In this document: one piece after another, positions 2 through 41,003 of the stretch | Position numbering within the stretch: position 1 is the first letter of the stretch | Layout: every line of letters starts with the position of its first letter | Source: Oscillospiraceae bacterium | GTDB taxonomy: Bacteria; Bacillota; Clostridia; Oscillospirales; CAG-272 | NCBI GenBank assembly: GCA_015063545.1 | Contig: SVTX01000006.1 | Coordinates: 1 to 62,187, forward strand | DNA: 62,187 bases | Direction: 5' to 3' | Program-made: the position numbers and the translations under genes | Notes under the pieces: model-generated | Databases searched by the model: none | Seen by the model: the letters and a program-made list of their open reading frames with translations, nothing else | Told to the model about the DNA's origin: nothing

Positions 2-1834
2 AACAATACAACATATTCATCAATAGATGGAAATCTGTATAATAAAGATGCGACTGCATTGCTACAATATGCGAGCGGTAAAATAAATATCTCGTTTACT
101 ATCCCTAACGGAGTCACGAGCATAGGCTATTCTGCGTTCAGGCGTTGCAGTAGCCTTACGAGCATAGAAATCCCCGACAGTGTCACGAGCATAGGCAATT
201 CTGCGTTCTTTGGTTGCAGTAGCCTTACTAGCATAGAAATCCCCGACAGTGTCACGAGCATAGGCATTTCTGCGTTCTCTGGTTGCAGTAGCCTTACGAG
301 TGTTGTAATCGGTGATAGTGTCACGAGCACAGGCGATGATGCGTTCGATGGTTGCAGTAGCCTTACGAGTGTTGTAATCGGTGATAGTGTCACGAGCATA
401 GGCGTTTTTGCGTTCTCTGGTTGCAGTAGTCTTACGAGCGTTGTAATCCCCGACAGTGTCACGAGCATAGGCGATTTTGCGTTCTCTGGTTGCAGTAGTC
501 TTACGAGCGTTGTAATCCCCGACAGTGTCACGAGCATAGGCTATTCTGCGTTCAATGGTTGCAGTAGCCTTACTAGCATAGAAATCCCCGACAGTGTCAC
601 GAGCATAGGCATTTCTGCGTTCTATGGTTGCAGTAGCCTTACGAGTATAGTTGTTGATGAAAACAATACAACATATTCATCAATAGATGGAAATCTGTAT
701 AATAAAGATGCGACTGCATTGCTACAATATGCGAGCGGTAAAATAAATATCTCGTTTACTATCCCTAACGGAGTCACGAGCATAGGCGATTCTGCGTTCG
801 ATGGTTGCAGTAGCCTTACAAGCATAGAAATCCCCGACAGTGTCACGAGCATAGGCTATTCTGCGTTCTATGGTTGCGATGTTCTTACGAGTGTTGTAAT
901 CCCTGACGGAGTCACGAGTATAGGTGTTTTTGCTTTCAAAGGTTGCAGTAACCTTGCGATATACTGCGGAGCAGAATCGCAACCCGAAGATTGGAATGTG
1001 GATTGGAATCCCGATAACCGCCCCGTAGTTTGGGGATATTGTGAACATATACCCGGAGAACCGGTAGTTGAGAATAATATTGACGCAACGTGTGCATCTT
1101 CGGGATCCTATGATAGCGTAGTTTACTGTGTTGATTGCGGCAGAGAAATAAGCAGAACTACAACGACAGTGGATTCACTAGAACATAACTATAACGAAGA
1201 AAACACCTGTACAGTCTGTGGCTACTATCCTGGCAAAGGAGTAGCATTTACATACGACGAAACATCTGAGACGTACAGTGTAACCGATTATACAGGCAGC
1301 GAAACAAGTGTAATCATCCCTGCGACCTGCAATGGTAAGCCTGTTACGAGCATAAGCAATTCTGCATTCGGTGGTTGCTATAGTCTTACGAGCATAGAAA
1401 TCCCCGACAGTGTTACGAGCATAGGTGAAAGGGCATTCTCTGGTTGTATGCAGCTTAAAAGTATAGAGATTCCCGAGAGTGTGACGAGTATAGGAGATTT
1501 TGCGTTTGTTCTATGCAGTGGTCTTACTAGCGTTGTTTTCGAGGAAAACGGTCAGTTGACGAGCATAGGTGATTCTGCGTTCTCTGGTTGTAGTAAGCTT
1601 ACGAGCATAGTAATTCCCGACAGTGTCACGAGCATAGGCGAATTTGCTTTCAATAGTTGCAGTAGTCTTACGAGCATAATAATCCCCGACGGAGTCACGA
1701 GTATAGGCTCTTATGCGTTCGATGGTTGCAGTAGCCTTACGATATATTGCGAAGCGGAATCCCAGCCCGAAGGTTGGGATGCGGGTTGGAATCCCGATAA
1801 CCGCCCCGTAGTTTGGGGATATAAGGGAGAATAA
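2..1834 (+). CDS. BspA/TpLRR-type leucine-rich repeat surface protein, 5'-truncated by the window edge
   Basis: Frame is open from base 2. Many 23-aa repeats (IPDSVTSIGxxAFxGCSSLTS), two cap motifs (IYCxAESQPExW..WNPDNRPVVWGY) and a Cys/His-rich linker. Confidence 0.9.
   Translation, partial: NNTTYSSIDGNLYNKDATALLQYASGKINISFTIPNGVTSIGYSAFRRCSSLTSIEIPDSVTSIGNSAFFGCSSLTSIEIPDSVTSIGISAFSGCSSLTSVVIGDSVTSTGDDAFDGCSSLTSVVIGDSVTSIGVFAFSGCSSLTSVVIPDSVTSIGDFAFSGCSSLTSVVIPDSVTSIGYSAFNGCSSLTSIEIPDSVTSIGISAFYGCSSLTSIVVDENNTTYSSIDGNLYNKDATALLQYASGKINISFTIPNGVTSIGDSAFDGCSSLTSIEIPDSVTSIGYSAFYGCDVLTSVVIPDGVTSIGVFAFKGCSNLAIYCGAESQPEDWNVDWNPDNRPVVWGYCEHIPGEPVVENNIDATCASSGSYDSVVYCVDCGREISRTTTTVDSLEHNYNEENTCTVCGYYPGKGVAFTYDETSETYSVTDYTGSETSVIIPATCNGKPVTSISNSAFGGCYSLTSIEIPDSVTSIGERAFSGCMQLKSIEIPESVTSIGDFAFVLCSGLTSVVFEENGQLTSIGDSAFSGCSKLTSIVIPDSVTSIGEFAFNSCSSLTSIIIPDGVTSIGSYAFDGCSSLTIYCEAESQPEGWDAGWNPDNRPVVWGYKGE
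101..960 (+). repeat. 69-bp tandem repeats encoding LRR units
   Basis: Near-identical gtcacgagcataggcNNNNNNgcgttcNNNggttgcagtag units at 69-bp spacing, interrupted once at about 650-770. Confidence 0.9.
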
Positions 1835-9847: not shown

Positions 9848-11245
9848 ATGGCACAGGTAAAAATCACAGAAACAGTATTGCGTGACTCGCATCAGTCGCT
9901 CGTTGCTACGAGAATGACCACCGAGCAGATGCTTCCTATACTTGAACAGATGGACAAGGTAGGCTACCACTCGCTTGAGGCTTGGGGCGGCGCTACGTTT
10001 GACGCTTGTATGAGATTTCTCAACGAAGATCCTTGGGAAAGACTCCGCAAGATCCGCGAGCATGTAAAGGACACAAAGCTTCAGATGCTTTTCCGCGGAC
10101 AGAATATTCTCGGCTACCGTCACTATTCCGACGACGTTGTGGAGTATTTTGTTCAGAAATCTATCGCAAACGGTATTGATATTATCCGTATTTTCGACGC
10201 GCTCAACGACCCCAGAAACCTCAAGACCGCAATAAATGCAACAAAGCGCGAGGGCGGTCACGTTCAGGCGGCGTTCAGCTATACGACAGGTCCCGTTTAC
10301 ACAATGGAATACTATTCCGAGTACGCAAAGAGACTTGAGGATATGGGAGCCGATTCTATCTGTATCAAGGATATGGCGGGACTTCTCAAGCCTTACGACG
10401 CTTATGAGCTTGTAAAGACCTTGAAGGAAAGCACAAGCCTTCCCATTCAGCTTCATACACACTATACCGCAGGTCTTGCTTCTATGACGCTTCTTAAGGC
10501 TATCGAGGCAGGTGTTGACATCGTTGACACGGCTATCTCGCCTATGGCTATGGGTACTTCCCAGCCTCCCACAGAGACACTTGTTGCGACTTTGCAGGGA
10601 ACAGAGTACGACACGGGCATCAGTCTCGAATCTCTTGACAAGGTTACAAAGCACTTTACACCCTTGCGTGAAAAGTATCTCGCTGAGGGACTTCTCAATC
10701 CCAAGGCGCTCAAAGTTGACGTAAACGCGCTTATCTATCAGGTTCCCGGCGGAATGCTTTCCAACCTTATGTCCCAGCTTAAGCAGGCGGGTAAAGAAGA
10801 TAAGCTCACAGAGGTTCTTGAAGAAGTACCGAGAGTAAGAGCTGACGTAGGATACCCTCCGCTCGTAACTCCTTCATCGCAGATCGTAGGTACACAGGCG
10901 GTATTCAACGTGCTTAACGGCGAAAGATACAAGATGGTAACAAAGGAGTTCAAGGGTATAGTTAAGGGTGAGTACGGAAAGACTCCCGTTGAGATAGATC
11001 CGGAATTTGTAAAGAAGATAATCGGTGACGAGGAGAGAATAGCTCATCGTCCCGCGGATGACCTCAAGCCCGAGCTTGACGAGCTTCGCGCAAAGATTCC
11101 CGCAGGCTATCTTGAGCAGGACGAGGATGTATTGTCTTACGCGCTCTTTGAGCAGGTCGCGCTCAAATTCTTTGAGTACAGAAAAAATCAGAAGTACGGC
11201 GTAGATGCATCTGCCGATGCAGAGCTTGGCGTACACAGCGTATAA
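9848..11245 (+). CDS. oadA: Oxaloacetate decarboxylase alpha (carboxyltransferase) subunit, without biotin domain
   Basis: LRDSHQSLVATR, EAWGGATFD, IKDMAG, HTH, PGGM, VTPSSQIVG. Confidence 0.9.
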   Translation: MAQVKITETVLRDSHQSLVATRMTTEQMLPILEQMDKVGYHSLEAWGGATFDACMRFLNEDPWERLRKIREHVKDTKLQMLFRGQNILGYRHYSDDVVEYFVQKSIANGIDIIRIFDALNDPRNLKTAINATKREGGHVQAAFSYTTGPVYTMEYYSEYAKRLEDMGADSICIKDMAGLLKPYDAYELVKTLKESTSLPIQLHTHYTAGLASMTLLKAIEAGVDIVDTAISPMAMGTSQPPTETLVATLQGTEYDTGISLESLDKVTKHFTPLREKYLAEGLLNPKALKVDVNALIYQVPGGMLSNLMSQLKQAGKEDKLTEVLEEVPRVRADVGYPPLVTPSSQIVGTQAVFNVLNGERYKMVTKEFKGIVKGEYGKTPVEIDPEFVKKIIGDEERIAHRPADDLKPELDELRAKIPAGYLEQDEDVLSYALFEQVALKFFEYRKNQKYGVDASADAELGVHSV

Positions 11246-38303: not shown

Positions 38304-38837
38304 TTAAAGTGTGATGTTGTGCGTTACTTTGTAAGATCCAAGCGCGCCTGTCTCGGAAGTACCGATAAGAATCTTTTCAACGCGCAATGACGTTGGTACT
38401 TTTTCACTCTTGATTTTATTATAGGCTCTGTCTGTTTTTGTTGTGTCTGAATCCATAAAGAGGGTAGTGTGGAATTTGTAATCCATGTCATATTCATGGA
38501 GCGGTACGTTGTATTTTTCGAGCAAAATACGGTTGAGATCATCGTGTATAAGGTTTACTGTGGGGCTTTCCTTCATACGTATCCATACTATAGTTTCTTC
38601 TTTTTCAATGCCTGCAACCTCAATATCAAACGGTTTGATTTGTTTGTAGTAATCAAGTATCGTATTTATGACGTCGGCATATATGCTATTATCAACGCAA
38701 AATGACATTTTGAGCGAAATATGAAAGGGAAGAGTGAAGTTGGAATTTGCAAATCCTATGTCGCTCTCAATTTGTTTGGCTGCTGATTTTATATTTCCAA
38801 GCTGACTGTCAACATCGATTCCTGTCCAGATGTACAT
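38304..38837 (-). CDS. 2H phosphoesterase (2'-5' RNA ligase/ThpR-like family)
   Basis: Two HxS/T motifs (FHISL, FHTTL) with typical spacing; 177 aa. Confidence 0.8.
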   Translation of the reverse strand: MYIWTGIDVDSQLGNIKSAAKQIESDIGFANSNFTLPFHISLKMSFCVDNSIYADVINTILDYYKQIKPFDIEVAGIEKEETIVWIRMKESPTVNLIHDDLNRILLEKYNVPLHEYDMDYKFHTTLFMDSDTTKTDRAYNKIKSEKVPTSLRVEKILIGTSETGALGSYKVTHNITL

Positions 38838-38874: not shown

Positions 38875-38903
38875 ATTATACCAGTCGCGGCGAGTTATGT
38901 CAA
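38875..38903 (-). promoter_or_regulatory. sigma-A promoter of the 2H phosphoesterase gene
   Basis: TTGACA-17-TATAAT on the minus strand, extended -10. Confidence 0.7.
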
Positions 38904-38927
38904 TAGAGTGATCACATCGGTTGTTCA

Positions 38928-39207
38928 CCCTTCATCCGCACCACTCAAAAACGCACCCATCAAAGCAATATATGCCAATGGGAGGGGCGGGACTTGAACT
39001 TTCACATAAAATTCTGCGAATTTTATGTGATGGGCTCTGTGTTACCCTTCGTCCGCACCACTCAAAAACGCACCCATCAAAGCAATATATGCCAATGGGA
39101 GGCGGGACTTGAACTTTCATATAAAATTCTGCGAATTTTATGTGATGGGCTCTGTGTTATCCTTCATCCGCACCACTCAAAAACGCACCCATTTGGGTGC
39201 GTTTGAG
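38928..39207. repeat. Tandem array of tRNA-derived units (117 bp, 115 bp and a partial third)
   Basis: Units start at 38928, 39045 and 39160. Each begins with an inverted copy of the tRNA-Leu(CAG) 3' end; the full units also carry GGGACTTGAAC and a 13-bp-stem hairpin. Confidence 0.9.
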
Positions 39208-39294
39208 TGGTGCGGATGAAGGGACTTGAACCCATATGAAATTGCTTTCACTGGAACCTGAATCCAGCGCGTCTGCCAATTCCGCCACATCCGC
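39208..39294 (-). tRNA. tRNA-Leu(CAG)
   Basis: GCGGATG..GGAATTGGCAGAC, anticodon arm CTGGA-TTCAGGT-TCCAG, long variable arm, GGGTTCAAGTCCC, encoded CCA. Confidence 0.95.
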
Positions 39295-39308: not shown

Positions 39309-39450
39309 CCAAAACTAAAGGGAGAGACTGTGTCATCGTTTTACGGGACTTGAACTTTTACACAAAACTGTGTTTTGTGTGACGGTTTATCAAGTTACCC
39401 ATTTGTTGTACCAAAACTAAAGGGAGAGACACAGTCTCTCCCTTTAGTTT
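39309..39450. repeat. tRNA-Leu(GAG) trailer module with inverted repeats
   Basis: ccaaaactaaagggagagac occurs at 39309 and 39411 and inverted at 39434-39453; acgggacttgaac at 39343; hairpin at 39358-39382. Confidence 0.85.
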
Positions 39451-39534
39451 TGGTGCGAGAAACGGGACTTGAACCCGTACGGTGTAACCACACGCCCCTC
39501 AAACGTGCGCGTCTGCCAGTTCCGCCACTCTCGC
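39451..39534 (-). tRNA. tRNA-Leu(GAG)
   Basis: GCGAGAG..GGAACTGGCAGAC, anticodon arm CACGT-TTGAGGG-GCGTG, GGGTTCAAGTCCC, encoded CCA. Confidence 0.95.
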
Positions 39535-39567: not shown

Positions 39568-39596
39568 ATTATACATCACAAAGTTTGTTTTGTCAA
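39568..39596 (-). promoter_or_regulatory. sigma-A promoter of the tRNA-Leu pair
   Basis: TTGACA-17-TATAAT on the minus strand. Confidence 0.8.
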
Positions 39597-39785: not shown

Positions 39786-41003
39786 ATGAAATTCAAGGAA
39801 AAATTCGCGTGTCTTTCTGACCGCAAGGTGAGCAGCTTTATTTATTTGCAGGTGTTTTTTAACGCCATGATCACCGTACTGAATATATTTGTCAACACCT
39901 TTCTGCTCAAGGCATATGGAAATACGTCAAATGAGGTTATGATATATAATCTTATCATGGCGATAACGCAACCGATAGCAATGTGTACGTCATTTTGGAT
40001 ATCCAGACGTGTAGGCTGTCTGCTCACGCAAAGAATAGGATTTGGCTTTTATGCGGTCGCTCTTATCCTTATGTGTATTTTTGGTGAGGAAATAGCATTT
40101 TTATATCCCTTACTCGGTATTCTCATAAGCTTTGGAGCGGGCTATTATTACGCGGTCTACAGCGTGCAGATGCTTCATTATACTAACGACGGAAACAGAG
40201 ATGCAATCTCGGGTGTGCTGACGGTGCTCGGCACGGTAATATCATTGATATTGCCTATCGTTTCAGGATATATTACGACTGTATTCAATGAATTTATCGG
40301 ATACAAAATAGTTTTCGGTCTGGTTGCGCTTATCGCCTTTGCGGCGTTGTTTACTACAACAAAGCTTCCAAAGATAGATACATGCCAAAACAATATCCGT
40401 TTTTTAAACGTATTTAAAACAATATGTAACAATAAAAACGGCAGAAATATAATGCTCGTCAATCTTCTTGATAACTTCAGAAGCTTTACCATAGGTATGT
40501 ATATAACCGTGGTGGTCTACCGCATTGTAAGCAACGAATTGTTGGTAAGCACGATAGCGGGAGTAGGAAGCATTCTGACGATTATCGGAGCTGTGCTGTA
40601 CGGTGTCGTGGTTTCCAAGAAAAATCGGGCAAAGTCTATACTGATAGCCACAATCTTCACTCTCGCCGCGTGCTGTTCGATGTGGTTTAAACTCAATATA
40701 TGGACTCTCGTAGCCTTTTTCCTGATGTATAGTTTTTTCAATATCTTTATAGCTATGCCCGTGTTAAACACACATTTCCACATAATAGAGCAGGATATGG
40801 GAATGAAGGACGCAGGGGCGGAGGTACATACCGTAAGGGAATTTTTTGTGGGTTTGGGAAGAATACTCGGTATTTTGATGATCTTTATAGCTCCGCAGAA
40901 TGATTTTGGCACGGCACTTGTGTTTGCCGTACTCGTCGCGTCTGCGCTCATAAGCGCTATTCTAATAAAAAGAATCAATAGTACGAGTGGCAAAACCTTT
41001 TAG
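39786..41003 (+). CDS. MFS transporter
   Basis: About 12 hydrophobic segments in two halves; 405 aa. Confidence 0.8.
   Translation: MKFKEKFACLSDRKVSSFIYLQVFFNAMITVLNIFVNTFLLKAYGNTSNEVMIYNLIMAITQPIAMCTSFWISRRVGCLLTQRIGFGFYAVALILMCIFGEEIAFLYPLLGILISFGAGYYYAVYSVQMLHYTNDGNRDAISGVLTVLGTVISLILPIVSGYITTVFNEFIGYKIVFGLVALIAFAALFTTTKLPKIDTCQNNIRFLNVFKTICNNKNGRNIMLVNLLDNFRSFTIGMYITVVVYRIVSNELLVSTIAGVGSILTIIGAVLYGVVVSKKNRAKSILIATIFTLAACCSMWFKLNIWTLVAFFLMYSFFNIFIAMPVLNTHFHIIEQDMGMKDAGAEVHTVREFFVGLGRILGILMIFIAPQNDFGTALVFAVLVASALISAILIKRINSTSGKTF

Follow-up and report, generated by a model that had tools for sequence, protein, structure and literature searches.

Tyrosine-integrase islands and prophages leave partial copies of tRNA and tmRNA genes (attL/attR) at their sites of insertion, and remnants that have lost the integrase persist as cis-mobilisable elements. 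In the attL/attR sites of tRNA-targeting integrases the direct repeat starts in the T loop. Short extragenic palindromic repeats form another well-described group, which includes REP/BIME with their RAYT transposases, Correia, ERIC and RPE. Folded single-strand recombination sites are represented by attP(+) of CTX-phi and by attC of integrons, whose R''/R' boxes have the consensus RYYYAAC/GTTRRRY. Tandem inversion duplications have a sense-antisense-sense order of copies, and the distal repeats of the E. coli tyrT locus are 178-bp units that carry the last 19 nt of tRNA-Tyr.

We analysed a 62,187-nt stretch of DNA from an Oscillospiraceae bacterium (the window; contig SVTX01000006.1, referred to here as C7, of genome G000), together with related genomes, which have other G numbers; other C numbers also denote contigs. 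The sequence behind the tRNA-Leu(GAG) gene of the window is, with near certainty, a member of a family of modules, each a non-coding unit of ~75 nt placed directly behind a tRNA-like 3' end and always on the strand of that gene. The unit consists, in order, of a terminator-like hairpin, an antisense arm (A), a short spacer, a second hairpin (H2) and a sense fragment (S). Arm A is an antisense copy of the last 16-28 nt of the neighbouring gene itself (positions 76 back to about 49), H2 is a perfect 11-15-bp hairpin that is homologous in all copies, and S repeats, in sense orientation, the T loop and 3' T stem of that gene. In the window S ends after the 3' T stem and in the relatives G018 and G019 it reaches CCA; originally it may have run through CCA into a further terminator copy. 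Units were frequently repeated in tandem, in 2-3 copies.

With integrase att remnants the modules have in common their tRNA and tmRNA hosts, a direct repeat that starts in the T loop, filled and empty sites and tandem stacking, and the S copies are direct repeats of the 3' part of the tRNA gene that bound inserted DNA. They differ in being only ~75-120 nt long and gene-free, in carrying an antisense tail copy and a family hairpin, and in forming a single family that serves 13 or more tRNAs and is conserved across species; no integrase gene was found inside or beside the element. Like extragenic palindromic repeats, the modules are short, non-coding, hairpin-forming, multi-copy and lineage-specific and lie at the 3' ends of transcription units, but they are confined to tRNA-like genes, and their arms are copied from the neighbour rather than constant. 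Neither H2 nor matches to the covariance model R1 (see below) were dispersed through intergenic regions generally, as REP/BIME sequences are, and G000, which is 92% complete, gave 0 matches to the Y1 (RAYT/IS200-like) transposase family (PF01797). The locus-specific arms, beside which no short target-site duplication was seen, also set the modules apart from MITEs, which have constant terminal inverted repeats. As with attP(+) of CTX-phi and attC, the direct and inverted target copies could fold into a duplex that mimics the target and has an unpaired centre; however, the modules have no cassette genes, dependence on Xer or IntI is a property of the known sites, and the modules read GGGYAAC ... 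GTTCAAG in place of the attC consensus, with no IntI-like gene nearby. The tyrT repeats resemble the modules in being tandem units behind a tRNA gene, each with a copy of the tRNA 3' end, but are known from one locus, consist of direct copies only, lack an antisense arm and do not belong to a family serving many tRNAs.

The tRNA-Leu(GAG) gene (39451..39534, minus strand, as are the other tRNA, promoter and module features of the window described here; ARAGORN, and 44.7 bits to the Rfam tRNA model) is the first of a two-tRNA transcription unit, and the only promoter-like site found upstream of the pair by promoter scan was TTGACA-17-TATAAT at 39568..39596, which matches at 12/12 positions. All the features that the first-pass annotation had described behind this gene were present where it had placed them and were far above chance by direct reading and by repeat and shuffle tests. 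The trailer is a terminator-like hairpin (39410..39454) with a perfect 21-bp stem that includes ACCA/TGGT and a 3-nt loop; on the forward strand its arms, ACCAAAACTAAAGGGAGAGAC (39410-39430) and GTCTCTCCCTTTAGTTTTGGT (39434-39454), surround ACA, and the inverted repeat extends to 33-nt arms of 88% identity (repeat pair I2). This first hairpin has the G+C-rich stem and T run of an intrinsic terminator, with the terminator-like site at 39442-39424. Arm A (39398..39413) is an inverted copy of positions 61-76 of tRNA-Leu(GAG), 12/16 by direct reading and arm scoring. It is followed by a spacer (39383..39397) made up of TAAC (39394-39397) and the 11 nt TTGATAAACCG that precede H2; reading and alignments identified the spacer as a decayed antisense T loop and 5' T stem, and it includes ACTTGA, the reverse complement of TCAAGT. 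H2 itself, TCACACAAAAC-ACA-GTTTTGTGTAA, lies at 39358..39382 and is supported by covariation. AA and the sense fragment complete the unit (39344..39357), the fragment, GTTCAAGTCCCG (39344-39355), matching the gene's own T loop and 3' T stem at 12/12 positions in fragment scoring. The R1 match to this module spans 39342..39414 (61.8 bits, E 3e-12).

Beyond it, repeat search and empty-site comparison delimited a partial second unit (39309..39334) with a second terminator loop and 3' arm and then the start of a second antisense arm, TGGCACAA, that extends past 39309 to about 39304. Positions 39309-39334 and 39428-39453 form a 26-nt inverted repeat of 100% identity (I3) and can equally be read as a direct repeat of 25 nt and 96% (D4).

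The second gene of the pair, tRNA-Leu(CAG) (39208..39294; ARAGORN, Rfam), is followed by a longer array in which two full units and a partial third repeat every 115-117 nt. A long hairpin (39160..39223; repeats I5 and I14, fold test) joins the tRNA 3' end, the trailer stem-loop and the antisense arm; the antisense arm matches at 15/16 positions, and the 21-nt arms of the hairpin are 100% complementary. Unit 1 (39101..39176; pattern search, R1 match of 56.4 bits) and unit 2 (38986..39061; repeats D1 and D2, R1 match of 63.6 bits) are followed by a terminator 3' arm, antisense arm and spacer start (38912..38959; repeats D1 and I1), and this partial third unit stops at the promoter of the next gene (38875-38903). 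ORFs of 62-74 aa span the arrays, within the repeats. The fold z-scores of the module region ranged from -9.0 to -12.2 against 200 shuffles.

The gene directly downstream of the CAG array (38304-38837) belongs to the 2'-5' RNA ligase (2H phosphoesterase) superfamily, which acts on RNA ends, and the promoter at 38875-38903 is its own and perfect. Modules elsewhere adjoin other genes, and its position beside this array is probably a coincidence. On the other side of the tRNA pair lies a conserved MFS gene (39786-41003); in G052 (C51, L017) a tRNA-Leu(CAG) module array is inverted relative to this gene, points towards it and starts with a degenerate 3' part of tRNA-Leu(CAG).

The core common to the GAG module and the CAG array forms a 29-nt family of three copies (D3), and the hairpins of the two Leu loci are each other's closest relatives. 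The pattern TAAC-N10/11-TCACANAAAA...AAAGTTCAAGTCCCG matched three times in the window and in none of 100 dinucleotide shuffles, so that the similarity of the core held against shuffled controls. The annotation's idea of a shared core stood for the two Leu loci, but across the family the shared part was the hairpin only and the T-loop piece was local; the T-loop part is common to the Leu loci because their T arms are alike.

A genome-wide profile search of the kind that the annotation had proposed was made with the covariance model R1, built from 28 copies of G000, and gave 31 matches in this genome. Of these, 27 stood 0-500 nt behind one of 13 tRNA genes (of the 32 called by ARAGORN) and on its strand, a zone that makes up 0.44% of the two-stranded genome; the other 19 tRNA genes had no match. 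One further match was in an array directly behind the tmRNA gene (C13 22807-23200), where the arm mirrors the tmRNA tail, and two were behind tRNA-like 3' ends without an ARAGORN call, one Pro-cgg-like (C55) and one Arg-cct-like (C33). The last match was near the start of C59, where no tRNA was found within the 262 nt of upstream sequence present on the contig. A genome-wide hairpin search of G000 found no H2-type hairpins outside modules. Since copies follow 13 different tRNA genes as well as the gene for tmRNA, simple duplication of one locus is ruled out as the source of the copies, as had been argued from the two Leu loci of the window.

At the Pro-cgg-like (C55 ~99615-99700) and Arg-cct-like (C33 ~700-780) sites only the 3' part of a tRNA is present, and the place orthologous to the former holds an intact tRNA-Pro(cgg) in both G051 and G006. 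The genes for tRNA-Tyr and tRNA-Val(gac) (C48 ~200-545 and C49 ~760-1105, minus strand) had no R1 module and share a near-identical trailer of another kind, with a GAAAAAAGCACACATTTGTC... terminator followed by repeated GTGAAATA-type motifs; the trailer of tRNA-Leu(CAG) in G042 is related to it.

To score arm A, an inverted copy of each gene's own last 16 nt was sought behind all 32 tRNA genes of G000. Matches of 12-16/16 at offsets of 32-39 were found for 11 genes (Leu-cag, Leu-gag twice, Leu-caa, Gln-ttg, Gln-ctg, Met on C27, Glu-ttc, Ser-cga, Lys-ttt and Arg-acg), and the remainder scored at most 11. Among the 29 tRNA genes with at least 60 nt of flank, 12 had an S match of 11-12/12. These results bear out the claim that a recurrent module carries arms that match only the local tRNA. 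They contradict the prediction that it would be restricted to GTTCAAGTCCC-like T arms, as the modules behind tRNA-Ser, tRNA-Lys and tRNA-Gln have their own T-loop fragments (GTTCGAATCCCC, GTTCGAGTCTCC and GTTCAAATCTAG, respectively). The T-loop part of arm A is altered, typically to GAGAAC, whereas S has the exact local T loop, and S is therefore not simply a reflection of A. H2 is preceded by a spacer of the GA(G/A)AA type, which is a decayed antisense T loop, has the base (C)ACA(C/T)A ... T(A/G)TGT(A/G)A and is followed by A(A/G). A third locus in G000, tRNA-Leu(GAG) on C64, has two tandem modules with a perfect antisense arm (16/16); between the GAG modules of C7 and C64, 52 of 54 core positions are identical, whereas arm A matches at only 12/16.

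Several other sequences near G000 modules had an unusual make-up. Upstream of the C64 tRNA-Leu(GAG) gene there is a decayed copy of the 5' two-thirds of the tRNA (C64 ~9875-10010, minus strand, L058) that has a 57-nt insertion in the D loop and stops before the T arm. Two relatives have comparable D-loop insertions: in G046 (L047) one of 46 nt interrupts a tRNA-Leu(CAG) copy that is full-length apart from it, and in G021 (L029) one lies in a second copy. Behind tRNA-Met (C27 5081-5300) the antisense arm (12/16) and the T-loop copy (11/12) are ~165 nt apart, with this stretch in the place of H2; the intervening sequence includes a hairpin, GACAGTCCGGCGGACTGTC, that resembles the D-loop insertion of the second tRNA-Leu in G021.

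Of the 39 genus genomes, 28 contained R1 matches, at most 24 in any one of them, and 11 had none. R1 was found in 0 of 150 other genomes of the order (96 other genera), which were searched with stricter filters than the genus, and the family thus appears as a feature of one genus. In G051 and G006 additional hosts were tRNA-Cys, Pro, Val, Ser-gga and Ser-tga. The Leu-type junction motif of the window was found in 7 of the 39 genus genomes; many members without it have other unit designs behind their tRNA-Leu genes, all with a hairpin and then a sense tRNA 3' fragment and most with a decayed antisense arm as well. A broader scan of genomes for the Leu-type motif gave 67 matches, of which 10 had the hairpin; nine of these were in records of uncultured Eubacteriales/Clostridia MAGs, and the tenth, in another Clostridiales MAG, resembles an ordinary terminator beside a tRNA fragment. 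At the module regions only tRNA reached the Rfam gathering score, the rest being sub-threshold long-hairpin artefacts, and a literature search of narrow coverage found no description of the family. The module family is uncatalogued.

In the eight inner pairs of H2 all but 1 of 216 cells were paired, and both sides vary in 7 of the 10 pairs that were counted. Covariation was 0.537, compared with 0.132 in shuffles, and none of 500 shuffles reached this value. Among 27 distinct sequences the eight inner pairs include no G-U pair, which makes the palindrome strand-symmetric, and this symmetry fits a constraint at the DNA level, or correction templated by the hairpin, at least as well as selection on an RNA. 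A further helix, H1 (the antisense T stem), was not retained, its pairing being present in only 62% of cells. An origin of H2 in the tRNA body was also rejected: the resemblance of the CAG-type 3' arm to the anticodon/variable region of tRNA-Leu(CAG) (p ~0.01) fails multiple testing, the GAG type shows no resemblance (p 0.04-0.33), and H2 is common to unrelated tRNAs.

For five hosts, tRNA-Lys, Glu(ttc), Arg(ccg), Pro(cgg) and Gln(ttg), the orthologous modules of G000, G051 and G006 were aligned. The block of spacer, H2 and S is nearly unchanged among these orthologs, about as conserved as the tRNA and promoter, whereas the terminator stems have been replaced between species and arm A, often decayed, is the least conserved part of the module. 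H2 groups by tRNA type and not by genome: the ACAACTCAAAA type is specific to Glu-ttc in all three species, and the Pro-cgg hairpin is identical in all three. For scale, the MFS gene beside the window modules is only 73.6% (G011) and 76.4% (G052) identical to the window copy. We infer from these alignments that the central block is under purifying selection, and the conservation of orthologous copies across species suggests that the modules are old. This conservation of the central block disfavours views in which the modules are debris only or have jumped recently.

The reading that we tentatively favour, at a confidence a little short of even, is that the module is a conserved, lineage-specific element of tRNA gene 3' flanks whose arms are templated locally by mirror copying at two hairpins. 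Intra-strand template switching at the two palindromic centres would make the arms and keep them local, the terminator palindrome reflecting the tRNA tail into arm A. Template-switch (quasipalindrome) mutation offers several likenesses, namely perfect stems with paired changes, homogenised arms and a flipped spacer; published work on template switching describes the creation and maintenance of perfect stems (PMC8794818) as well as arm homogenisation and spacer inversion (PMC8604942). The loop of the terminator, in the sense of the tRNA, is TGT in the first copy of the window and in G052 C48, and ACA in the second copy of the window, in G051 and in G052 C99, and a loop flipped in this way between window copies and orthologues would count for mirror copying. 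Template switching would nevertheless leave the localness of S unaccounted for, because S is not complementary to the T-loop part of A. Moreover, template switching and tandem inversion duplication are mutational processes, and template switching alone cannot explain one homologous, conserved H2 at 13 or more unrelated tRNA loci. As it appears to be under purifying selection, the central block is proposed to be a working cis element of tRNA gene 3' flanks and not a scar.

In four DNA sequencing runs the contigs were short and broken at repeats, and the tRNA positions were swamped by other organisms; one 'goes back 85' joint was present in three DNA runs and probably derives from the C64 array. 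In G006 (C55, L003) a GAG-type module lies at the centre of a large imperfect palindrome, the arms of which are two ~90%-alike copies of an esterase-like gene with its promoter; the palindrome could be a genuine inverted duplication or result from the assembly folding back at the hairpin. In G008 (C103, L044) a copy of tRNA-Leu(GAG) without its first 7 nt lies behind tRNA-Leu(CAG), convergent with it and flanked by ~60-nt direct repeats.

A broader reading, which we regard as possible but hold with somewhat more reserve, is that the modules represent a novel class of element that customises itself to tRNA tails, in which a hairpin unit installs itself beside any gene that ends in a T arm, acceptor and CCA and gains mirror and direct copies of the tail. 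Such an element could be mobile, without proteins of its own and using an enzyme of the host, or it could be a device for the cis-regulation of tRNA 3' ends throughout the lineage.

We consider it rather unlikely, although a serious rival, that the module is a miniature integrative element, that is, a protein-less unit of ~100-120 nt (S, terminator, A and H2) which can fold into a rod and enters tRNA and tmRNA genes at the T loop through site-specific recombination, with the recombinase supplied in trans. Its own copy would replace the 3' end of the gene and displace the old fragment downstream, and repeated insertion would yield tandem arrays. The start of the direct repeat in the T loop and the tmRNA gene among the hosts are as this model expects, and empty and filled alleles, which the annotation had suggested comparing, both exist at orthologous spacers between the GAG and CAG genes: the spacer is filled in G000, G051 and G052 C48 and empty in G052 C99 and in G011 C38, the latter syntenic with the window through the MFS gene. 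The empty sites are not precise reversals of the filled ones. Behind tRNA-Leu(CAG), G001 has a terminator only, whereas in G004 a foreign terminator comes first, then a module and a tRNA 3' fragment, and last a terminator of the G001 type; with the original terminator behind the last fragment and the first one foreign, this order appears to fit T-loop integration better than mirror copying, and it is mainly for this reason that we take the model seriously. Similarly, the internal terminators of G018 are unlike the last one, and the Arg(acg) and Gln(ttg) arrays end in S followed by a different terminator. The arms A and S of one unit can also pair, and in G052 C48 both have GTAC/TTTTGT variants that are absent from the tRNA.

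Several observations weigh against integration of this kind. No recombinase gene lies near the window modules, where the neighbours are housekeeping genes, and the only three tyrosine-recombinase (PF00589) matches in G000 (a prophage integrase, one beside tRNA-Arg(cct) and one fragment) are all on other contigs; as noted above, Y1 transposases were absent too. An origin in phages was rejected, the hairpin being present in 0 of the 5 viral-contig matches to the Leu-type junction motif. A separate matched element would be required for every one of the 13 or more tRNA types, the orthologous copies appear old and conserved with H2 sorted by tRNA type rather than genome, and the final partial units of several arrays, which consist of terminator and A, are not predicted. 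A rolling-circle mechanism was considered separately, since CAACTTGATA of the GAG type resembles a rolling-circle nick site, and was rejected: the other types lack this sequence, which is accounted for as the T loop in reverse complement.

We give little credence to the modules being neutral debris, in which fold-back duplications of the tRNA tail (sense-antisense-sense) arise from replication errors at hairpins, are then amplified by unequal crossing-over and have no function. Sense and antisense copies do alternate around two palindromes, copy number varies, partial units close the arrays, some acceptor parts and A arms show decay, a terminator loop has flipped, and some relatives, such as G019, have other unit designs with a hairpin arm that is plainly tRNA-derived. 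Independent errors, however, cannot yield a homologous H2 at 13 or more unrelated tRNA loci, H2 never occurs outside the module in G000, and the central block is conserved although the coding flank is only 74-76% identical between species.

An anti-tRNA RNA, acting in trans or in cis, seems equally improbable. In such a model the 16-nt arm would pair with the tRNA 3' end, much as a primer-binding site does or an extended T-box contact would, and so sense the tRNA, sequester it or prime from it. The sequence of the arm complements positions 61-76 with the CCA and tracks tRNA identity in 11 genes and species variants as well, for example in G048 and in the group of G018, G009 and G044. It is, however, the least conserved part of orthologous modules and lies behind a terminator-like hairpin, the promoter scan found no promoter inside the modules of the window, and there was no match to T-box or other Rfam families. 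The sole reverse transcriptase of G000 was rejected as a partner of the modules, as it belongs to a prophage diversity-generating retroelement. The latter is part of a prophage-like region at a contig end (C20 40800-51177, L183) that encodes the reverse transcriptase, a bAvd-like protein, two DUF6273 proteins, ParB, a small terminase subunit and an integrase.

Finally, a mechanism specific to GTTCAAGTCCC-type T arms and active only at Leu tRNAs can be set aside as exceedingly improbable: all three G000 tRNA genes with that T arm bear modules, but so do the tmRNA gene and ten more tRNA genes whose T loops differ, and in each case the T-loop fragment is the gene's own.

If, as we favour, the module is a conserved element that flanks tRNA genes on the 3' side, its most likely place of action is the 3' end of the tRNA transcription unit, and the candidate roles are termination, the handling of read-through precursors and DNA topology behind very active genes. 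Most modules follow a hairpin that scores as an intrinsic terminator, and a role as RNA would therefore need read-through. The spacer module behind tRNA-Leu(GAG) is expected to be transcribed as part of the tRNA-Leu(CAG) precursor, because the promoter scan found no promoter before tRNA-Leu(CAG). In all three spacer modules seen (G000, G051 and G052) the A arms are decayed, whereas terminal modules have arms of 10 to 16/16, and this difference, in a small sample, hints that pairing of the RNA with the tRNA tail is unwanted. Such pairing is in any case not essential, since several lineages retain H2 and S although arm A has decayed. The variation in module copy number between tRNA genes and between genomes speaks against a functional reading.

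These modules also have consequences for how genomes of this group are read. Long palindromes break assemblies, many module copies lie at contig ends, and fragments of modules can be mistaken for prophage att sites or pseudo-tRNAs. The flanks of tRNA genes are usually viewed as promoters, terminators and integration scars. Here, one small element lies behind at least 13 tRNA genes and the tmRNA gene, with each copy rewritten to mirror the 3' end of its neighbour, and it has been conserved across species in which about one coding nucleotide in four differs. A mobile unit of this kind would be a protein-less element that is able to retarget itself; if it is functional, it would represent an unrecognised step in the ending or processing of tRNA transcription units in these gut Clostridia-type bacteria.
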